A stretch of DNA of 64,000 nucleotides from Amia ocellicauda (Eukaryota): NCBI RefSeq assembly GCF_036373705.1, contig NC_089863.1, positions 18,979,406-19,043,405 on the forward strand, given 5' to 3'. Position 1 is the stretch's first letter. Every line of letters begins with the position of its first letter. Below, piece after piece: positions 1,052-60,099 of the stretch. The notes beneath the pieces were generated by a model. That model made no database searches, was not told the DNA's origin, and worked only from the letters and a program-made list of their open reading frames with translations. Both the position numbers and the translations under genes were made by a program.

Positions 1052-3936
<2,885 letters not shown>

Positions 3937-5671: not shown

Positions 5672-6722
5672 TAAGTTACAGTCCAACTACATATTCTTCT
5701 AGAGTACAGACACTGACTGAGCCCTGTACTGTACTGTATATATACACCTGGAGTACAGACACTGACTGAGCCCTGTACTGTACTGTATATATACACCTGG
5801 AGTACAGACACTGACTGAGCCCTGTACTGTATATATACACCTGGAGTACAGACACTGACTGAGACCTGTACTGTATATATACACCTGGAGTACAGACACT
5901 GACTGAGCCCTGTACTGTACTGTATATATACACCTGGAGTACAGACACTGACTGAGCCCTGTACTGTATATATACACCTGGAGTACAGACACTGACTGAG
6001 ACCTGTACTGTATATATACACCTGGAGTACAGACACTGACTGAGCCCTGTACTGTATATATACACCTGGAGTACAGACACTGACTGAGCCCTGTACTGTA
6101 TATATACACCTGGAGTACAGTCACTGACTGAGCCCTGTACTGTACTGTATATATACACCTGGAGTACAGACACTGACTGAGCCCTGTACTGTACTGTATA
6201 TATACACCTGGAGTACAGACACTGACTGAGCCCTGTACTGTATATATACACCTGGAGTACAGACACTGACTGAGCCCTGTACTGTACTGTATATATACAC
6301 CTGGAGTACAGACACTGACTGAGCCCTGTACTGTACTGTATATATACACCTGGAGTACAGACACTGACTGAGCCCTGTACTGTATATATACACCTGGAGT
6401 ACAGTCACTGACTGAGCCCTGTACTGTATATATACACCTGGAGTACAGACACTGACTGAGCCCTGTACTGTACTGTATATATACACCTGGAGTACAGACA
6501 CTGACTGAGCCCTGTACTGTATATATACACCTGGAGTACAGACACTGACTGAGCCCTGTACTGTATATATACACCTGGAGTACAGACACTGACTGAGCCC
6601 TGTACTGTATATATACACCTGGAGTACAGACACTGACTGAGCCCTGTACTATATATATACACCTGGAGTACAGACACTGACCGAGCCCTGTACTGTATAC
6701 ATACACCTGGAGTATATATACT
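5672..6722. repeat. Intergenic minisatellite, 45-50-bp unit (about 22 copies), between the 3' ends of the convergent SULT genes
   Basis: Unit cctggagtacagacactgactgagccctgtactgta(ctgta)tatatacac, with variants carrying or lacking the extra ctgta. It creates spurious long minus-strand ORFs. Confidence 0.95.
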
Positions 6723-7048: not shown

Positions 7049-10532
<3,484 letters not shown>

Positions 10533-20230: not shown

Positions 20231-21194
20231 GTGTATAATGGGTGGGGGTGGTGTTAAAGGTGCTGCTGTTGTGTTGAGTAATTATTTGTTGCTCCTTGAT
20301 TGAATTCATTGTTCTTGTTTCTGCCTATTTATTAATTTGATACAAGATATCGGGGAGCTCAGGATCCCGTGATGGGACCCACCTCCGGGGACGGCTATCT
20401 CCCCCTGCTGGAGCCCATGTCCAAGATCTTTTAATGAAAAGATTGTTTTTAAAAATGATTTGAAGAATGAATTTTAATTGTTTTTAAAGAATTAGTTGAT
20501 TTTTAAATGCACCGGTTTTGTTTATTTTATGGTTTTATTTGTTATGATTTATCTGATGCATTTTCAGTTAATTTAAATGTATTTGACCATATTGTTTTTG
20601 TTTAATGGTTTTATTTGGCAGTATTGCCCTTAATCACAAGTTTATTTGATTTATTGCACAGGTTTATTCGAGTATGTATTTTGTTTAAGTTAATCACTGT
20701 AAGATTAAAAAAAAAAAAAAAAACAATTAAGTGATTTTAAGAATTGATTTAAATTTATTTTAATTTTGAATATTTATTTACTGAAATGTAAAATACTTAT
20801 CCTAATAAAACGGTAGTAATTTGAAATGTTAAATTTATAAAATGGGGTGTCTGCAAAGCAACCCTACCGCTGAGGGTTTCATTTTTATTACCATTACTAC
20901 TAAACTGTTGGGTGTAACGGTACAGTCTTGTATAATTTGCACCCTTCATTTGAAATTGTGATTAGCTTAAACCGTGTTCCTTAAACAATACAAATGTATC
21001 TAACTTTGCTGAACACTGATTCAGCATAGGAAGTAACACCGGTCCATGTTGCCCACTGTAATTTCTCAAAATATTGATCTAGGTCTCTGACTTAATGCAG
21101 CTACATGATATCCAATTAAACTGCTTTGAAACTGGGAAAAGATACTTTTACAGGGTACGGGAAAACCCACTGTATCTTATAAACTGGAGACTAC

Positions 21195-22416
21195 ACTCAC
21201 CTAAAGGATTATTAGGAATACCTGTTCAATTTCTCATGAATGCAATTATCTAACCAACCAATCACATGGCAGTTGCTTCAATGCATTTAGGGGTGTGGTC
21301 CTGGTCAAGACAATCGCCTCAACTCCAAACTGAATGTCTGAATGGGAAAGAAAGGTGATTTAAGCAATTTTGAGCGTGGCATGGTTGTTGGTGCCAGACG
21401 GGCCGGTCTGAGTATTTCACAATCTGCTCAGTTACTGGGATTTTCACGCACAACCATTTCTAGGGTTTACAAAGAATGGTGTGAAAAGGGAAAAACATCC
21501 AGTATGCGGCAGTCCTGTGGGCGAAAATGCCTTGTTGATGCTAGAGGTCAGATGAGAATGGGCCGACTGACTCAAGCTGATAGAAGAGCAACTTTGACTG
21601 AAATAACCACTCGTTACAACCGAGGTATGCAGCAAAGCATTTGTGAAGCCACAACACGTACAACCTTGAGGCGGATGGGCTACAACAGCAGAAGACCCCA
21701 CCGGGTACCACTCATCTCCACTACAAATAGGAAAAAGAGGCTACAATTTGCACAAGCTCACCAAAATTGGACAGTTGAAGACTGGAAAAATGTTGCCTGG
21801 TCTGATGAGTCTCGATTTCTGTTGAGACATTCAGATGGTAGAGTCAGAATTTGGCGTAAACAGAATGAGAACATGGATCCATCATGCCTTGTTACCATTG
21901 TGCAGGCTGGTGGTGGTGGTGTAATGGTGTGGGGGATGTTTTCTTGGCACACTTTAGGCCCCTTAGTGCCAATTGGGCATCGTTTAAATGCCACGGCCTA
22001 CCTGAGCATTGTTTCTGACCATGTCCATCCCTTTATGACCACCATGTACCCATCCTCTGATGGCTACTTCCAGCAGGATAATGCACCATGTCACAAAGGT
22101 CGAATCATTTCAAATTGGTTTCTTGAACATGACAATGAGTTCACTGTACTAAACTGGCCCCCACAGTCACCAGATCTCAACCCAATAGAGCATCTTTGGG
22201 ATGTGGTGGAACGGGAGCTTCGTGCCCTGGATGTGCATCCCACAAATCTCCATCAACTGCAAGATGCTATCCTATCAATATGGGCCAACATTTCTAAAGA
22301 ATGCTTTCAGCACCTTGTTGAATCAATGCCACGTAGAATTAAGGCAGTTCTGAAGGCGAAAGGGGGTCAAACACAGTATTAGTATGGTGTTCCTAATAAT
22401 CCTTTAGGTGAGTATA
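21195..22416 (+). mobile_element. Compact Tc1/mariner transposon, apparently intact (1222 bp; 29-bp TIRs; TA target-site duplications)
   Basis: Left TIR CACTCACCTAAAGGATTATTAGGAATACC (21195-21223). The right end 22388-22416 is its reverse complement with 2 mismatches. TA precedes and follows the element (21193-21194 and 22417-22418). There is a single uninterrupted internal ORF. Confidence 0.9.
21342..22382 (+). CDS. Tc1/mariner transposase, 346 aa, full length with catalytic D,D,E intact (D..D with 36 residues before E = DD36E spacing)
   Basis: N-terminal paired-like HTH (GKKGDLSNFERGMVVGARRAGLSISQSAQLLGFSRTTISRVYKEW), catalytic D in WSDESRF, second D in FQQDNAPCH, and E in DLNPIEHLW. Counting DNAPCHKGRIISNWFLEHDNEFTVLNWPPQSPDLNPIE gives 36 residues between the second D and the E. 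There are no frameshifts or stops. Confidence 0.9.
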   Translation: MGKKGDLSNFERGMVVGARRAGLSISQSAQLLGFSRTTISRVYKEWCEKGKTSSMRQSCGRKCLVDARGQMRMGRLTQADRRATLTEITTRYNRGMQQSICEATTRTTLRRMGYNSRRPHRVPLISTTNRKKRLQFAQAHQNWTVEDWKNVAWSDESRFLLRHSDGRVRIWRKQNENMDPSCLVTIVQAGGGGVMVWGMFSWHTLGPLVPIGHRLNATAYLSIVSDHVHPFMTTMYPSSDGYFQQDNAPCHKGRIISNWFLEHDNEFTVLNWPPQSPDLNPIEHLWDVVERELRALDVHPTNLHQLQDAILSIWANISKECFQHLVESMPRRIKAVLKAKGGQTQY

Positions 22417-23204
22417 TAGATTTATCGTAAAGTAAGTTTGCATGAAAATCAATCAGGTATTTATGACACTGGGTGGGCTTGATTAAAATACGTGAAAAGC
22501 AACTTCTGGCTTAGTGGGGATGCATGTAGACTGAATGCAAACCAGTTGGGATGGCTGCAGTATGGAAGTAGGTACTCCTGTTTTCCCAGGACATGTCCAC
22601 AGGTAAACTTAATTAGCAGGGAAGCTTAGGCCTGATTCATTAAACATGTCCGCCTATTTCTAATGTAATGACTTGGCATGGCGGTGCGCATGTATGCAGT
22701 GGCTTTGCTCTCCTTGAAACCGTCTTTAATGTTTGTTTTGTGCTAAATTTCGTTGTATAGTTTTGCAATGACAAAGGTATTCTACAAGGAATAGCAGTCA
22801 AGTGGCAAGCTGTCCAACTAAAGAGCAAACTAAAATAGCTTGGCATTCTTTGACTGTTGAAGTAGCATGGTGTATATGAGGTTGGGAGGAAGAAGATGAT
22901 TCAACAAGGTTTATTTTCACTTATAGGGAGTTCTGTATTTTATTGGGTTACAATTGACATCTCTTCGCAATGCACCTTCTCCCTTTTCTCTGAAATGCAA
23001 AATGTCACTCAGTTCCAGCTTCACTGCACTGGCCAAGCTGCTTTTATGACTAGTGTATTTTGCTTTACATTACCTTTCCCTGTTCGCATGAGAAGGAAGA
23101 GATATTGATTTTGGTTCCCTGGAGGAAATACACAGATAACCAGCTCAGGAATGTATACAGGGTTTGTATATCGGAGAATCACTTTAGATGATTATTATTA
23201 TTAT

Positions 23205-25852: not shown

Positions 25853-26482
25853 CTACAGTGAGGGAAAAAAGTATTTGATCCCCTGCTGATTTTGAACGTT
25901 TGCCCACTGACAAAGAAATGATCAGTCTATAATTTTAATGGTAGGTGTATTTTAACAGTGAGAGACAGAATAACAACAAAAAAATCCAGAAAAACACATT
26001 TCAAAATAGTTATACATTGATTTGCATGTTAATGAGTGAAATAAGTATTTGATCCCCTATCAATCAGTAAGATTTCTGGCTCCCAGGTGTCTTTTATACA
26101 GGTAACGAGCTGAGATTAGGAGCACTCTCTTAAAGGGAGTGCTCCTAATCTCAGCTCGTTACCTGTATAAAAGACACCTGTCCACAGAAGCAATCAATCA
26201 ATCAGATTCCAAACTCTCCACCATGGCCAAGACCAAAGAGCTGTCCAAGGATGTCAGGGACAAGATTGTAGACCTACACAAGGCTGGAATGGGCTTATAC
26301 TTATTTCCCTCATTAACATGCAAATCAATTTATAATTTTTTTGAAATGCGTTTTTCTGGATTTTGTTGTTGTTATTCTGTCTCTCACTGTTAAAATACAC
26401 CTACCATTAAAATTATAGACTGATCATTTCTTTGTCAGTGGGCAAACATACAAAATCAGCAGGGGATCAAATACTTTTTTCC
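25853..26482 (+). mobile_element. Internally deleted (MITE-like) Sleeping-Beauty-type Tc1-like element
   Basis: Left IR tacagtgagggaaaaaagtatttgatcccctgctgattttg...acagtgagagacagaataacaacaaaaaaatccagaaaaac (25856-26000). Transposase start [24 protein letters not shown] (ATG 26223) is truncated after about 30 codons. Right IR 26335-26480 is the exact inverse of the left IR. An internal palindrome ggtaacgagctgagattaggagcactc/gagtgctcctaatctcagctcgttacc lies at 26098-26160. Confidence 0.85.
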
Positions 26483-26689
26483 CTCACTGTATAATAACCT
26501 GTTTGTGCTGGGATCCTATGCTTTTTGGTGAGCCAGCTGGGCTTAGGAGAGGAGGATGCTGGAATGTGGGAGATTTTTGGAGAGGGGCTGCGCGACACAC
26601 CATGCTCCTCTTCACCCTCGCTGACCATCTCAATGGCAAGACCATCCGGGAGTTTGTGGAGAACAGGTTCACTACATGGCCAAAAGTAT

Positions 26690-34860: not shown

Positions 34861-36290
34861 AGACTGGAAGAAACTAAGAATGATTTGCATGAAAAGAGAA
34901 GAGAAAGTATAAGAGCTGAGCAGGAGAGGTTTGAAACCAAAGTGGAGAGAAAGACATTCCAGTGCCAGTCCAGCTTCCCAGACCACACATACCCTGACCT
35001 TGGATTTCTCAACATCCCTGAAGAAAACATAAACCTCAGGAAACTCTGTCCCGAGCAGATCCTGTCTCTCTCACATTCTCTCCAGGAGCTCTTGTTTGAG
35101 GACTGGGTTGAAGAACTGCCCCAGATGGATACTTTGACTCATGCTCATGTCCTGATTGCAGAGCTGTGTGTGATGGCACTGGATACTGACCATGATGACT
35201 TTCTGGAGCTTACTGCTGACCAGCTGCAGCTGGCAGTGGAGACAGTGGGGCATGCAGTGACAGTTCAGGATGACCGGGAGGAGGAGGAGCTACAGGTACA
35301 GTGTCTGCACTTCACACAGGCCTTGTTCTTGACTTACACACGGCTATTGCTATCGCCAAGGAATGGAGTCAGGGAGAGATTTCATCAGAGCAACTCTTCC
35401 TTCTTCAATTCCTGGAACTCCTCCTCAGAGTCCTGGAGTGGCAGGCAGGCCTATCTAGTGCAAAGGAAAAGCGTCTGGAGCTGATCCTGGAACAGGTAGG
35501 TCAATCTCTGCCTGAAGAAACCAAATCCTTTGCTTGTTTGCTGCCTATTTTGCAGGCACTACTGAGAGCTAACTGGACACCCCTGGATGCACTTGATTGC
35601 ATAGAGAGCTTGGGACAGAAAAAGTTGAACTTCAATGACGCACTGTGTGTCTTAGAGCTGATACAACGGCACAATCTCCCTCCATCCTGGACAGACAGTC
35701 AGGGTAACTCGCTGAACACTCTGCTGGAGTCCACATCCAAATGCAGCAAATTCTACCGCGGACTGGATGAGAAGCTACAAAAGGAAAGCTCACACTGCCT
35801 GGACTCCCTGCTTTCTGAAGTGCAAGAGACAGAGTGTGATCAGCTGAGGAGTGTTATTGGTGCTGTGCTGAAAGACATAAAAGAGATTCAGGAAGAAACA
35901 AAAGACAAGGGAAATGCAGGTAAACCTTACAAGACACTTTTCCATTACCTTTTGAAAGAATCCAGGTTTGGGACAACAGAGCTGAGGATAGTGCTGTCCC
36001 ACCTTTGCAGAGCAATGTTCTACACACATGGTTGGTATCCCTCAGTACCTCAGATAATAAAGTGGTATAACTTGGTTGAAACTTATGGAAGGAAAGACTG
36101 TGAGATCCTAACGCTAGAGAAAGACCCCTGTGTGGCAGCCATGTATGCAGCACTCAGGGTGCTTCAGGGGCATCGGGTGGGCATAGTGCTGGGCTCTACC
36201 TCCTCCAGGTCACAGGACTGGCCTCCTCTCCTATCATTGGTCAATCTTTCATTCACCTCATTCAAACCCTCTCTCCTTCACAGTACTTAA
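34846..36290 (+). CDS. Putative uncharacterised protein-coding gene (E/R-repeat N-terminus, roughly 460-aa alpha-helical unique region); proposed 65-nt intron 35296-35360
   Basis: ORF 34846-35484 (frame 1) and ORF 35301-36290 (frame 3) overlap. Splicing CAG|gtacag (35295/35296) to tatcgccaag|GAATGG (35360/35361) joins them in frame: ...VTVQDDREEEELQ|EWSQGEISSEQLFLLQFLELLLRVLEWQAGLSSAKEKRLE.... Codon usage looks protein-like throughout (LPILQALLRANWTPLDALDCIESLGQKKLNFNDALCVLELIQRHNLPPSW...). I do not recognise a named family. A frameshifted pseudogene is the alternative. Confidence 0.4.
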
Positions 36291-37437: not shown

Positions 37438-37607
37438 GGGGTGCAACAACAAATAATAATGTAATAATAAAAATAATAATGTCCAATAAAGTGAAGAAAT
37501 AATTTGTACCCATCAGTATCTAGGGTAATTTGATTTTTGTATATAATAAACATTAAAGGTTTATCAATTCGTTAACATTTAAACATCCCTATTAGGTAGC
37601 ACAGTAT

Positions 37608-37960
37608 ACAGTGAGGGAAAAAAGTATTTGTTCCCCTGCTGATTTTGTACGTTTGCCCACTGACAAAGAAATGATCAGTCTATAATTTTAATGGTAGGTG
37701 TATTTTAACAGTGAGAGACAGAATAACAACAAAAAAAGCCAGAAAAACGCATTTCAAAAAAGTTATAAATTGATTTGCATGTTAATGAGGGAAATAAGTA
37801 TTTGATCCCCTATCAATCAGCAAGATTTCTGGCTCCCAGGTGTCTTTTATACAGGTAACGAGCTGAGATCTCTTAAAGGGAGTGCTCCTAATCTCAGCTC
37901 ATTACCTGTATAAAAGACACCTGGGAGCCAGAAATCTTGATGTACCAGCTCAGTGGGATG
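37608..37960 (+). mobile_element. Truncated SB-type Tc1-like element (left IR plus internal palindrome only)
   Basis: tacagtgagggaaaaaagtatttgttcccctgctgattttgtacg... is about 95% identical to 25856-26160. Confidence 0.8.
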
Positions 37961-38289: not shown

Positions 38290-41200
38290 TTAATCTACAG
38301 AGCCAACAGGAGGCAGAATAACTAGGTCCCTATTCATATCCAGAGTCCAGAAGAAGGGATAGAGCTTATCTCCCTCAGTGAACTGAATGTCAGCGAAGGT
38401 GTAGATATGAGCCCTGGACTCCACTTTGTAAAAGGAGACCCGCCTCCTCCAGAGATCCACACACACCGCCATCCGGCTGGGCTGTAGGCTCTGGGGGAGG
38501 GGAGTCACAGGGTCGGTGAGCGCTGAGAAATCGGAAGAGAAGGATCCCAAAGCCCAGTATCCCTGCTGGGGCGTGAAGGCGAACTTCCCCTTCCTCTGGG
38601 CGGACTCCCGAGCCACGCCTATCCTGCACCAGCCGTTGACCTCCACCATCCAGTAGTGTGTCCCCGAGGTGAAGCTCTCCCGGCTCACGGTGCAGCACCA
38701 GGAGTCGAAGCGCCGGGGGTTGTCGGGAACCTCCCGCAGCTTTCCCCGTCGTACTCTCTTCCCATCCTCGGAGAGGGCGAGCTCACAGTACGCCACGTCA
38801 GGGTCCAGCGTCACGTCCACTGTCCAGGGAGGGGACACAAACATATAGTGTGGTGCGTATAAACAACACGGCCAGGGTGATACCACCACCATCAAAATTC
38901 ATCCACACATTGACAGGGTTCAAGTGAAGCCGAGTGAGACGCAGCAGAAAAGACCATTTTGTTTATTAATGCAGCGGATAAAGGAAATAAACCCACCAGC
39001 AAGCAAAGGAAACATCTATGTACAGTAAAGAATAAGTAATTTAGAAGAAAAGATGGGACAGTGCCGACATGTATTATTACTATTATTAATCAATCAGGCA
39101 GCAGTGTGGAGCACAGGTTAGGGCTTCGGCCTCCTGGGCTATATTGAAGCAATTGTAAGTTGCCCTGGATAAGGGTGTTTGCTAAGAAATATAATTATAA
39201 TATATTTCCAATCTCTAGCGTTAGTTAAAGTCAAATTTAAAAGGATTTTCCAATCACATCATAAAGGATACTCAATGCTGGTGCAGTACACCTTGTCTCT
39301 TACGGTGACGTGTAAATAAAATGTGTGGGAGCGCACAGATGAGGTTGCTTCTCATAAATCAGCAGCAAAGAACACTCACCCCATTTGCCCAGGAGACCTG
39401 CAAGAAACAAGGCCATACGTTAAAGATGAAGAAATATTATTCCAATCAAATTGCCTTTTCATATTGCACACTTATGACAAGAAAGATGCACGCTGAATGT
39501 CTTGTTGTTTTCATGACACATGCTGTAAGTAAGTGTTTTCTACATTGTCAGATTCTGGAAATATTCTTTGAAAGTAATTGTATTTGGCAATTAACTTACA
39601 CATGCCTGTAACCCAAATTCGCAGAGTAAACCAATAATTCAACACAAAAATTGAAAATTCATAAACCACAATTTTGTGCTGTGACTTTATGGGAGACATG
39701 TGAAAAGTAAGACAATACATGCAACTTACATGGCATTTCACAAATAAAAAACAGAGAATGCGCTTTTTATGCTTTATTGAGAATTCAGACAAAAAAGTAA
39801 GAAACACAAAATTGGAGTTTAAACAGCTATGTAGTGGTCATGTGGGTCTTTGAAACTTGCCTCAGATGGAGACTAAATGTTTCCCCTGTCAGGCACTATT
39901 GCTCTCAGGCTGGAGGGAGGACTTGTAACAGGCTCGGGTGAATTAATGCAGAGTGGATCCCCAAGAAATACAAATGTCACCAAATTGATTTACTTACCTT
40001 TAAATGCCCACAGATTCTCCTCCTCTGCAAAAAGAGAAATGGAGTGGAGTCAGCAACCCTGTGAACCCAGCAAGTCCACTGAAATCGTAGCGATTGCTTT
40101 TAAGAAAATAGACTCAAGAAAAGTCTCATCCTGCAATATTAAAAAAGGGGGCTACAGCACAATGTGGAAGTGTAAACCCTCTTCAGAGGCACAGAGAATC
40201 CCCAGCACACTGTTCTCATAGGAGTGACTAATTCAGACATGCTTACAAGTGGACAGCACAGAGATTTTATCTATCTATCTATCTATCCAATGATAATCTT
40301 ATAAAAGGGTCTTTTAGTTTTGTGGATTTTAAGGAATATGCTGCATGTGATTGACTGCCTGGTGAGCCAGAAGAAAGTTCTTGAAAATAGGGTATTAATT
40401 GAGCATCTGGGAGTCTGTGTGTGCAAAAAGGCTAAAGATCCTCCCCACTCGATGATCAGTCACCTATCGCTCTTGAGGTGATGGTCATACACCACTCTGT
40501 TATCTAGATTGAGGGTGCATGTCAAAGGTAACAGTGTCTTTAAGAACAGCTACAGCATTCACAGTGACACACATTATGATCAAGCTACTCACTGTCCATT
40601 CTCCTCCACTGCCTCAACAGAAGAGGAACCGCCACCACACCAGTGACCACAGAGAGAGCTGTGGTGAGGAGGAAGGCCACCATCCACCCACAGGGGTAAG
40701 GGAAGAAGTCCACTGCGAAACAGAACAGGAAGGTTAATCCACAGGAACCCTCACACACAACTCCTCCGCTGCTAATCTGGGCCTACGTAGCAAAGCCACT
40801 ACAATACTGGGACAGACGAGGGCAGTGGCACCCAGTGTAGCACATCATGGAGGTGGTCCTTGTCCTCTTGTTGTCATCATTCCCTTAGTCATGTGAGTCT
40901 AGGCCTAAACAAACTATTTACTTTCTGCTACATATGCCTATTGGGTTTGTCCACTACAACTGAAAAGAAGCCATATCGTGAAAATTATTAAACAAAGAGA
41001 GTAATTTAGACATCAGATGAGAGATTGGAAGAAGAAAACTACATAACATATACTTGATTGCATGGTAGAATAACAAAGATGGTTATTGAATTGTCTGTTG
41101 TGTTGAAACAGCATCCTGCAGTGACTGAAATGAAAAGGGGAACAGCGAGCTACAGAAAGTGACACCTCAGTGTGCAATCGGTTGCAAAGGAAGTGTGTCA

Positions 41201-42492
41201 TGTGACACTTAGGGAGTATCAGCTCTTTGAAAACAGCAGAAGGTCAAGGAATTTGTCTATTCTCGATTACAGTAAGAATTACAACATCTAGTTGAGTAAT
41301 TGAAGTTATGAGCCAGTTAGGATTATTACTATTTTTTATTATTATTTAAATGTGTGCAGTAAAAATCTACTCTATAAGAACTGGAATGTTGCAGATCTAG
41401 GCCAAAAATAGTTTTCCAATTTTTCCAAATAGCCGAAGTAGTATTTAAATATATATTATCAACAGAAGCAATTATTAGTTTTTAGATTCAAATGTTGATT
41501 TCACAAAAACAACATTTTCAATATTTGAAAGTATTTTAATTGAATCTCACAAAACATGGGTAATTAATTGTATGTAAACATAATGTGATATATTGTAACA
41601 ATTGTAAGTCGTACTGGATAAGGGCATCTGCTAAGAGATATAATAATAATATTGTGTATTTGGTGTTCCTGTTCAGGTTTGCTCATTGAAAGTGCTCATA
41701 ATTGCGCTTTAGCAACTGAGAGAACCTGAAGTACTCACTGGCTATGTGGAGCTGGGATGCCCAGTCTGGTTCAGGCACTGTGCTCCGGATCAGGCAACAG
41801 AAGACACTGGAATTCTGTCTGAGTGGGAAGTAGCTTCTGACATTCAAACGCCCCTGACCGTCACTCTCCACCGTGGTCTTGGATTGATTGGTGACGTTGT
41901 GCCCGTTGCTGTCTGTCCACATCACTGTGGGCGCAGGGTACCATCCCTCTGACCTGCACTGCAGCTGGGTTTGACCTCCTTCAGAGTGGAGGGACACTGT
42001 GGACAGGGTCCCCAGAGCTGGCAGGGGTTAGTACAGCTGGGTGAGTCTGTCTGGGTGGTCAGTGAAGCTCATACAAAGACAGCTGAGACATCATCAATGT
42101 TCTAGACCAGAACATATAAAAGTTTAGTATCACCTTATTAGGTACTTTATTCTTATGTCAATGCTCCCCTGATTACCCTGAGAAATGCCACTGGTGTAAA
42201 TGTGACAAGGGAACCCTGTATTACAGTGTATCATCTACATCTACAGGAACAGCAGATAATAGCCACTGGGCTGGGAGTTCACGTGACATACACAATGTGA
42301 AGGTCATTCCTCTTTATTGTCGTACTGGTCGAGAGAAATGCTCTATATTGAGGTATAGAGACACCCAGGCGACCAAGACCGAAAACGTCTATGCCACGTT
42401 GCTCTTTTGAACCAATGAAACTCTCACCTTTAACCTCCACATTTGTCACGAGTAGAACAGTAGTTCTAAAGAGCGGTTTAAATAAATTGTTA

Positions 42493-42557
<65 letters not shown>

Positions 42558-43682
42558 GTTCTCTATCCATCTATTTCTTGATGTAATTGTTGATTCATCG
42601 CAAAAGTGCAGACACCTAAAGAACCAAGACCAATAAACCTCACCTTTCACGACAACGTCAATGAGAGCTTCTTCGTACCACTCGTCAGTTTGAACCAGAC
42701 ATCTGTAGCGACCGTCGTCAGAGCCTCGCACCGCCATCAGGCCCAGAGACACGTTGCCTGTCCTGAACTCCTCTGGGAAGAGTCGTGTCCTGTTCTGGTA
42801 GGCTGCCATCTGCTTCTCGTTGTCGTACTTGCCCCTCCAGTGTAGACACACAGGCGCCGAGTGGTCCTCTCTGAACCACCTGATCTCCATGCCCACTGCG
42901 CTGATGCGGGACGAGAGATGACAAGGCAGAATGGCATCCTCTCCGGCGAAGATGACAAAGGGTTTAGTGGGGCCGAGAACCTGAAAATTCCCTGTGGGGA
43001 GACAAATCACACAGTTGAAGAAACAGTCTTTTATACAGACCAACATATAGATGAAAAAAATATATAGACAGTATGGTCCATGACTAGCATGAAGCACCAG
43101 ATTGTTATAGATGATGGGTCAAATAGAGATGTCTCAAAACCTACACCCAGCTACCAGCACACTCGTCTGTCCCTACACTTCCTCCCATCCATTCTGAACT
43201 TCCTGTTCGAGAAGATGCCCCCAGTGTTGTTGTTGGGGGGGAGGGGATTGACCACCACCCCTGATTAGAAAAATATGAGATTCAGATGGAAACTACAATG
43301 AAGCTTCCATGGAAAAAATACTTCTCCACTGTCTACTTCTGCCCATCAGTGCTGAAACGACAAACCCACTGGGGTCAGAACTACCCAGTCCCAGACACAG
43401 CTTTTCAGACAGTAATACCTCAACAACCTCCTGAGAAGCAGCCTTTAATATAACTGATTTTATGTTCATCTCCTTGGGCTCCTGTGCTCAGAAACCAATG
43501 AGAAGAGCTGAACTGCAGGCATCTGGGGTGGGCTGGGCTGAAACCCTGCTGTTGAGGGTCTGAGCCCCACTTGGCAGAGCAAAGCTGCTCTCACTGTACC
43601 TGATCCTGAGACTGAGCAGTGCTGCAGCAGCAGGGCAATCACACAGAGCCACTCCGAAGGGTCGGGCTTCATCCCTGGAAGA
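38290..43682 (-). CDS. Butyrophilin-like (BTN/BTNL-type) gene: signal peptide, IgV, IgC, TM, mini-exons, B30.2/PRY-SPRY
   Basis: Minus-strand exons, all with GT/AG and a consistent phase 1: 43682-43610 (MKPDPSEWLCVIALLLQHCSVSGS); 42991-42644 (IgV: NFQVLGPTKPFVIFAGEDAILPCHLSSRISAVGMEIRWFRED...DDGRYRCLVQTDEWYEEALIDVVVK); 41996-41739 (IgC: SLHSEGGQTQLQCRSEGWYPAPTVMWTDSNGHNVT...RLNVRSYF...); 40712-40593 (TM: DFFPYPCGWMVAFLLTTALSVVTGVVAVPLLLRQWRRMD); 40024-39998 (27 nt, KEENLWAFK); 39397-39380 (18 nt); 38819-38290 (B30.2: VDVTLDPDVAYCELALSEDGKRV...WMVEVNGWCRIGVARESAQRKGKF...LYPFFWT..., stop TAA 38290-38292). Further small exons between 39400 and 40590 cannot be excluded. The domain order IgV-IgC-TM-heptad mini-exons-B30.2 is diagnostic of butyrophilins. 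Confidence 0.8.
42486..42556. repeat. (ATT)n microsatellite in the BTN-like IgV/IgC intron
   Basis: attattatt about 23 units. It produces the poly-N and poly-L stretches in spurious ORFs. Confidence 0.95.
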
Positions 43683-58990: not shown

Positions 58991-60099
58991 AACTAAATGT
59001 TGCATTAATGTGTTTCAGTATAAATGAAAAATAATAATAATGCAAGAATCTAGGCAATAATGCAGCAATAGGCAAAACCTATGGAACTACCTTTCCATGT
59101 ATCACAGACATGTCCATTGAAGTACATGATTGTCAGCCTCTTTGTGAGTTATTCAGGTCCCTCAGACATGCCACTGAGCAAAGCTGGGCCTCTCCATGAA
59201 GTGACAGAGGGGCACCTCGGGGTTTGACTCCACTAGACCTCTGAAGGTGTGCTGTGGTATCTGGCACCAAGACGTTAGCAGCAGATCCTTTAAGTCCTGT
59301 AAGTTGCAGGAACTCGTGCACCTTGAGCTCGTGATTCATCAGACCAGGCCACCTTCTTCCATTGCTCCGTGGTCCAGTTCTGATGCTCATGTGCCCATTG
59401 TAGGTGCTTTCAGCAGTGGACAGGGGTCAGCATGGGCACCCTGACTGGTCTGCGGCTACGCAGCCCCATACGCAACAAACTGCGACGCACTGTGTGTTCT
59501 GACACCTTTCTATCAGAACCAGCATTCACTTTTTCAGCAATTTCAGCTACAGTAGCTCGTCTGTTGGATCGGACCACACGGGCCAGCCTTCGCTCCCCAC
59601 GTGAATCAGTGAGCATTGGCCGCCCATGACCCTGTCGCCGGTTCACCGCTTTTCCTTCCTTGGACCACTTTTGATAGGTACTGACCACTACAGACCGGGA
59701 ACACCCCACAAGAGCTGCAGTTTTGGAGATGCTCTGACCCAGTCATCTAGCCATCTCAATGTGGCCCCTGTCAAAGTCGCTCAGATCCATACGCTGCCCA
59801 TTTTTCCTACTTCTAACACATCAACTCTGAGGACAAAATGTTCATTTGCTGCCTAATATATCCCACCCACTGACAGGTGCCATGATAACGAGATTATCAG
59901 TGTTATTCACTTCACCTGTCAGTGGACATAATGTTATGGCTGATTGGCGTATATATAAATGTGTGTGTGTGTATGTGTGCATGTGTGTATGTATGTATGT
60001 GTCATTTTTGAAAAATTTAAGTTACCCTAAAACTGTAGTAATTTAGTTTGAACATAATTCAAGTACATGCTTCGTTTCTTTTTTTTCTTTTCTTTTTGT

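Follow-up and report, generated by a model that had tools for sequence, protein, structure and literature searches.

Analysis of a probable young copy of the DD36E transposon Incomer in a 64-kb stretch of bowfin (Amia ocellicauda) DNA

The 64,000-nucleotide stretch of Amia ocellicauda DNA that was analysed here as a whole (contig NC_089863.1 of assembly GCF_036373705.1, forward strand positions 18,979,406 to 19,043,405; hereafter the window) holds a transposon which we read, with a probability of roughly 0.9, as a young copy, complete in its structure, of the Tc1/mariner family Incomer (DD36E), within which it belongs to the nearly invariant lineage called cluster B, known from some frogs and many ray-finned fishes. 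This kind of element is already known, and the literature has reported for Incomer that copies are intact, that activity is recent and that horizontal transfer occurs. Possibly new are only the host record, which concerns the bowfin and, from database matches, also the bichir, and a small host-specific sub-lineage. Here we present the family assignment, the structure and age of the copy, its relationship to a second copy in Amia calva and its prospects of mobility, together with the other features of the window.

Incomer (DD36E/IC) was defined in 2019 by Sang et al. (Mob DNA 10:45; PMC6875036) from fish and frogs. Its elements are about 1.2 kb long, carry just one open reading frame (ORF) of about 346 amino acids (aa) between terminal repeats of 22-32 bp, duplicate a TA dinucleotide, and are nearest to DD34E/Tc1 yet form a clade of their own. 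The family was present in 132 species among the ray-finned fishes, 33 of which held intact copies, and the intact fish copies span 1169-1229 bp (PMC6875036). Esox lucius has 5418 copies, of which 266 are intact, while 547 copies with 224 intact ones are given for Paramormyrops kingsleyae and 235 with 13 for Leuciscus waleckii (Table S1, PMC6875036). The copies of these three fishes are 1225 bp long and encode 346 aa; they have repeats of 29/29 bp with CACTC ends and TA/TA flanks, and they start with TACACTCACCTAAAGGATTATTAGGAACACC, the same end as in the window element (PMC6875036).

The catalytic residues of the window transposase are D155 (codon 21804-21806), D246 (22077-22079) and E283 (22188-22190), with 90 residues between the first and second aspartate (D1-D2) and 36 between the second aspartate and the glutamate (D2-E). 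An earlier description of the window, made from its letters only and called the sequence-only reading below, had claimed an intact triad and a count of 36, and had named an indel elsewhere, to be revealed by alignment to DD34E references, as the way in which the count might fail. Both claims hold, and the count stands after that alignment was run. In the alignment to the solved catalytic domain of Sleeping Beauty SB100X (5cr4_A; HMMER, E = 1.7e-43, residues 119-346) each of the three catalytic residues has its counterpart, and the window protein has a 2-residue insertion located between D2 and E (wfleHDnef versus wl--kDnkv in SB100X). In a MAFFT alignment with the DDE reference domains published alongside the Incomer paper (PMC6875036), D2-E is 36 in the window protein and in all 10 published Incomer references, 34 in the four DD34E references (Passport, Frog Prince, Quetzal and Sleeping Beauty), 37 in the maT and DD37E references and 35 in IS630.

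The check by phylogeny of the DDE domain, likewise proposed by the sequence-only reading, gave a concordant assignment to Incomer. A neighbour-joining tree was computed with a reduced set of the references of the Incomer paper, without Traveler, TRT and Intruder, and was evaluated by bipartition counts. Incomer together with the window protein was split off from all other sequences in 100/100 bootstraps, and 99/100 placed the window protein beside Esox, Paramormyrops and Leuciscus. Incomer was sister to DD34E in 97/100, and the DD34E references grouped by themselves in 89/100.

At the DNA level, three consensus sequences given in Text S4 of Sang et al. 2019 (PMC6875036) align to the window element with 0 indels. 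IC_Caau from Carassius auratus matches it at 1210/1224 bases (98.9%), IC_Paki from Paramormyrops kingsleyae at 1208/1225 (98.6%) and IC_Nofu from Nothobranchius furzeri at 1195/1225 (97.6%). The transposase protein is 98% identical to a Tc1-like transposase of Cyprinus carpio and 95-96% identical to Paramormyrops proteins; the two protein clusters of 90% identity among which it falls also include Polypterus senegalus, Leuciscus, Cirrhinus, Esox and Xenopus tropicalis. An exact match to the transposase protein was looked for and not found on record. A metagenome scan delivered only four close DNA copies (L001, L005, L006 and L007; 89-98% identical), and the variants of the window copy occur in none of these four. 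A protein annotated as 'transposase, partial [Vibrio parahaemolyticus]' (P0103) is 77% identical to the window transposase over 72% of the query. This protein and the metagenome copies most likely represent fish DNA in bacterial or metagenome assemblies and not bacterial genes.

The element thus combines the features by which Incomer is recognized: the spacing of 36, the position in the clade, a length of about 1.2 kb with an ORF of about 346 aa, short repeats of the CACTC type, the TA target and high identity to known members. At the N-terminus, the published family definition calls for two helix-turn-helix (HTH) motifs together with a GRPR-like motif and a signal for nuclear localisation, of which Pfam shows both HTH. 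The same data place the element outside DD34E/Tc1, from which it is separated by the spacing of 36, a DDE identity of 34-36% and a separate clade. The claim that it is DD36E/Incomer and not DD34E is accordingly borne out by the spacing, the 100/100 clade, the architecture and the 98.9% DNA identity.

An ordinary DD34E element of the Tc1 or Sleeping Beauty type, in which the 36 residues would be an artefact of an indel elsewhere or of a misidentified catalytic residue, was considered and is given next to no probability. Of all families DD34E stands nearest to Incomer, as its sister, with DDE domains that are about 34-36% identical, Sleeping Beauty is the sole match of the window protein among solved structures, and decayed copies of DD34E type are present in the same window. 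These points are outweighed by the alignment to SB100X, in which all three catalytic residues coincide and a clean insertion of 2 residues lies between D2 and E, by the values of 34 for the four DD34E and 36 for all Incomer references in one and the same alignment, by the separate groups in the bootstraps (89/100 and 100/100) and by the DNA identity of 98.9% to a published Incomer consensus. The candidate was ruled out on the spacing, the tree and this DNA identity.

With both TA dinucleotides the Incomer element measures 1225 bp (21192..22416), and without them 1221 bp (21194..22414); its parts are listed in Table 1. The sequence-only reading had located it correctly, with ends (21193-22418) that were off by 1-2 bases. 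Its descriptions of a complete 346-aa ORF without lesions, which has no internal stops, of TA on both sides and of terminal repeats that match each other at 27/29 bases were all confirmed. Including TA, the arms of the inverted repeat (21192-21222 and 22386-22416) are 31 nt long and 94% complementary. In the whole 64 kb there are exactly two occurrences of the 29-mer CACTCACCTAAAGGATTATTAGGAACACC, inverted relative to each other and with one mismatch in each arm, where 0.00 are expected (100 shuffles). The left end reads CACTC and the right end, through the single substitution at 22414, TACTC. The flanks of the insertion give AAACTGGAGAC-TA-TAGATTTATCG as the predicted empty site; no empty site or paralogous insertion site was found in the 64-kb window or the fetched loci, and no further copies or solo ends of the Incomer element occur elsewhere in the window.

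Compared with the cross-species consensus, the window copy differs at 14 positions (1.1%). Seven of these lie in the ORF, one is the outermost base of the right repeat, and six cluster at 21219..21339, in the left repeat and the 5' untranslated region, a part before which the Amia calva locus discussed below ends. Six of the seven coding differences are non-synonymous (R71M, I77T, R138Q, T186I, A253G and K271N) and one is synonymous; since 76% of non-stop substitutions are expected to be non-synonymous under neutrality, six or more out of seven have a probability of 0.48. The ORF shows no sign of purifying selection, and the substitution pattern is compatible with neutral decay since insertion. 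Random substitutions simulated in the consensus ORF left it intact in 71% of cases with seven substitutions, 48% with 14 and 22% with 30. The ORF of the window copy is therefore intact because the copy is young (P = 0.71 for seven random coding substitutions); such an ORF is expected at this age and by itself provides no evidence of selection or current activity. The divergence of about 1.1% from the consensus, of which about 0.4% over the 997 bp compared with the Amia calva copy is private, points to a recent insertion.

Another Incomer copy was found in Amia calva (contig L070) at a different insertion site, a TA followed by a (TA)n run. By BLAST it is 99.1% identical over 1006 bp, including 9 flanking bases, with 997 bp of the element covered. 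Four derived substitutions are common to the window copy and the Amia calva copy: 21659T, 21754A (R138Q), 22099G (A253G) and 22154C (K271N). Over the 997 bp, the differences at 21553 (R71M), 21571 (I77T), 21898 (T186I) and 22414 (outermost base of the right repeat) are private to the window copy, and three are private to the Amia calva copy. Most likely the two go back to one source element in which Q138, G253 and N271 were already present, and each would since have acquired about 0.3-0.4% of private change. The combination of G253 and N271 is absent from all 139 related proteins compared. As the second copy lies at a different site in Amia calva, the Q138/G253/N271 sub-lineage has transposed at least twice, and the recent mobility of this sub-lineage as a whole is clear.

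In the bichir Polypterus senegalus at least eight transposases of the Incomer lineage to which the window element belongs are annotated. A full copy in CM029061.1 (L069, 9851..11077) has 97.2% DNA identity to the window element and shows at its left end a TACTC change of the same kind as that at the right end of the window copy. The 21-kb Polypterus locus, which served as a control, has only this Incomer copy in common with the window. The names Amia and Polypterus are absent from the searched supplementary files of Sang et al. 2019, for Amia including the species table, and for Lepisosteus a single truncated copy is listed in the 2019 survey (PMC6875036). A literature search found no paper linking DD36E to Amia calva, and a scan of viral contigs for a vector of horizontal transfer gave no match and no close relative of Incomer.

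Incomer most likely reached the bowfin or a close relative by horizontal transfer. The suggestion of recent transposition or horizontal transfer in the sequence-only reading is supported and already published for the family; current activity of the window copy itself is improbable. A more specific version, that the copy belongs to an Amia-specific sub-lineage (Q138, G253, N271) which arrived by very recent horizontal transfer and may still transpose, is put forward tentatively, as something we think possible and somewhat doubtful. The copy has an identity of 98.6-98.9% to IC_Paki and IC_Caau, and teleosts are only distantly related to the bowfin, a member of the Holostei and of a 'living fossil' lineage that evolves slowly. 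If it is true, the host range of the near-invariant Incomer lineage would extend to holosteans and, from database matches, to bichirs (Polypterus).

By analogy with related transposons, the 346-aa transposase would bind the 29-bp terminal repeats through a paired-like domain of two HTH, and its DDE domain, with an RNase-H fold, would cleave both ends of the element; the excised element would then be inserted at a TA dinucleotide, which would thereby be duplicated. The papers searched contained no assay in which transposition was demonstrated for an Incomer element. For cleavage, Tc1, Tc3 and Sleeping Beauty need the outermost bases of their ends. The changed sites 22414 and 21219 of the window copy have the consensus base in all other (five to seven) sequences compared. 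Three changes of the protein fall on residues that are conserved when non-gap residues are counted among 139 relatives. At position 71, where the window copy has M, 99/109 relatives have R; at position 77, where it has T, 129/132 have V or I and none has T; and at position 186, where it has I, T is found in 106/126 relatives and in Sleeping Beauty.

Given a right end with a mutated outermost base and three private changes at conserved residues, full autonomy of the window copy is unlikely. That the copy is both fully autonomous and currently active, with a functional transposase and competent ends, and hence a live source of insertions, must be rated as improbable. Such a reading could draw on the intact ORF with its DDE triad and all three Pfam domains, on the two recognisable repeats, on the very low divergence of the copy, on the Amia calva copy as a sign that the sub-lineage has moved at least twice, and on the published survey, which regards intact Incomer copies as possibly active (PMC6875036). 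It is opposed by two mutations in the repeats, one from G to A at 22414, where the right repeat has its outermost base, and one in the left repeat at 21219, by the three private non-synonymous changes at conserved positions, among them T at position 77 (0/132 relatives), and by the intact ORF being uninformative by itself (P = 0.71). Of the label 'potentially autonomous' given by the sequence-only reading, the intact ORF remains; it is, however, expected at this age, and two repeat mutations and the three private changes at conserved sites speak against the label.

Several points weigh against the reading of the element as a young Incomer copy that decays neutrally and has a damaged end. Per base, the non-coding part (7/180) has about six times as many differences from the consensus as the coding part (7/1041; Fisher p = 0.002), an excess that pure neutral decay after insertion fails to predict; some of the differences may be lineage variants older than the insertion. 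The mechanism outlined above is taken over by homology from Tc1, Tc3 and Sleeping Beauty and follows from family membership, and the impaired excision that the mutated terminal base might cause is an expectation drawn from the same three elements.

The lower number of differences per base in the coding part than in the non-coding part could, together with the intact ORF, also be taken as the mark of a domesticated transposase, a transposon-derived host gene whose integrity selection has preserved. This is extremely improbable, as both terminal repeats and the TA duplication are retained, the coding differences, six non-synonymous out of seven, are those of a sequence without constraint, many species harbour near-identical copies at sites that are unrelated, and a neutral young copy accounts for the intact ORF. 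The domesticated gene was rejected on the repeats, the TA dinucleotides, the unconstrained coding changes and the many near-identical copies, and the young Incomer copy is preferred.

The significance of the copy is limited mainly to annotation, which should mask it or give it the label Incomer (DD36E) cluster B and not that of a host gene. As a confirmed host, the bowfin would represent one more deeply divergent host of an Incomer lineage that is near-identical in cyprinids, pike, elephantfish, killifish, bichir and frogs, and its record would reinforce the published conclusion of very recent and widespread horizontal transfer. A consensus of host copies could be a candidate for rebuilding an active Incomer transposase as a gene-transfer tool, for which the window copy is not the best template.

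The decayed copies of DD34E type that the sequence-only reading had noticed elsewhere in the window are indeed present (25854..26491, 37603..37942 and 59329..59799; Table 1); the last of them is the only other similarity to the Incomer element within the window. The 638-bp element has CAGTGAGGGAAAAAAGTATTTGATCCCC ends and a remnant transposase start, and is 96-99% identical to a copy of this non-autonomous Tc1-like element in Amia calva JAAWVP010010898.1 (L071 5079-6629), a contig that also holds paralogous gene segments at 69-79% identity. The partial copy at 37603 contains a 52-nt near-perfect inner palindrome (37818-37869 / 37891-37942).

Among the remaining features, each sulfotransferase copy continues as a minisatellite of 43 bp (16.6 copies at 2264-2975 and 36.5 copies at 7553-9121) that remains open in several reading frames, and a 44-bp minisatellite lies between the two copies at 5702-6714. 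The protein of the PRY/SPRY exon (38293-38895) of the butyrophilin-like gene matches Amia calva at 70%, Lepisosteus oculatus at 64%, Polyodon/Acipenser at 52-55% and teleosts at only about 40%; two contigs of Amia calva hold segments paralogous to this gene, with DNA identities of 69-79%. Along with the repeats and the Incomer variants shared with Amia calva, these matches make a bowfin or a very close relative the most likely host; a locus that matches the window at 100% was not found. The two long overlapping ORFs have no Pfam domain, and the 329-aa ORF (35301-36287) has no homologue in a collection of 5.8 billion proteins; they may represent a lineage-specific exon or a frameshifted gene. 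For the zinc-finger ORF no exact protein match is on record.

Table 1. Coordinates of the Incomer element and of the other features in the 64-kb window
Feature	Position	Strand	Remarks
Left TA target-site duplication	21192..21193		Direct sequence reading; within 31-nt inverted repeat
Left 29-bp terminal inverted repeat	21194..21222	+	CACTCACCTAAAGGATTATTAGGAATACC; single change versus family consensus, C to T at 21219
5' untranslated region	21223..21341	+	Five differences versus cross-species consensus: 21238, 21254, 21316, 21320, 21339
Transposase ORF, 346 aa, intact	21342..22382	+	ATG to TAG, 0 internal stops
First HTH, DNA-binding domain, aa 11-47	21372..21482	+	Pfam HTH_23, E = 1.5e-6
Second HTH, aa 75-142	21564..21767	+	Pfam HTH_Tnp_Tc3_2, E = 5.6e-16
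DDE catalytic domain, aa 151-295	21792..22226	+	Pfam DDE_3; holds D155, D246, E283
Right 29-bp terminal inverted repeat	22386..22414	-	Outermost base mutated, G to A at 22414
Right TA target-site duplication	22415..22416		Direct sequence reading; within 31-nt inverted repeat
Sulfotransferase (PF00685) exon sequence, inverted duplicate	1907..3151 and 7442..9478	+ and -	
Internally deleted Tc1-like (DD34E-type) element, 638 bp	25854..26491		TA-flanked; 195-bp inverted repeats, 96% complementary
Two long overlapping ORFs, 212 and 329 aa	34846..35484 and 35301..36290	+ and +	Different frames
Second, partial copy of the 25854..26491-type Tc1-like element	37603..37942		About 96-98% identical to the Amia calva L071 copy
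Butyrophilin-like gene, PRY/SPRY and Ig V-set exons	38293..38895 and 42282..43097	- and -	
C2H2 zinc-finger protein, single ORF, 418 aa	54107..55363	+	Non-finger N-terminal half of about 200 aa
Decayed Tc1-like transposase fragment	59329..59799	-	47% aa identity to Incomer residues 2-158; two stop codons

Among known systems, the window element resembles most the cluster B Incomer elements IC_Caau, IC_Eslu, IC_Paki and IC_Nofu, with which it shares length, ORF, the sequence of the 29-bp repeat, CACTC ends, TA target and spacing; from the consensus it differs by 14 single-base differences, at least four of which are common to the Amia calva copy and so mark a sub-lineage of the host. The founding Incomer element of Rhinella marina (1225 bp, 346 aa, 29-bp repeats) has, by its published description, the same architecture and belongs to the same family; it is typical of the family, whose elements have been sorted into four clusters (PMC6875036).

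The DD34E/Tc1 elements (Tc1, Tc3, Sleeping Beauty, Frog Prince and Passport) share with the window element the order of two HTH followed by DDE, the D1-D2 distance of 90 and the TA target, and presumably share the cut-and-paste mechanism with Incomer. They differ in a D2-E distance of 34 as against 36 in the window protein, in a DDE identity of only about 34-36% and in forming a separate clade, and the repeats of Sleeping Beauty are long and provide two binding sites at each end, those of Incomer being short (29 bp). The sibling families of Tc1, Traveler (DD35E/TR) and Intruder (DD38E/IT), are described, like Incomer, as recent offshoots of DD34E/Tc1 that have a narrow distribution, are often transferred horizontally and are present in ray-finned fishes in many intact copies; by their descriptions they are set apart from Incomer through a spacing of 35 in Traveler and of 38 in Intruder, the latter being also longer (1.5-1.7 kb).

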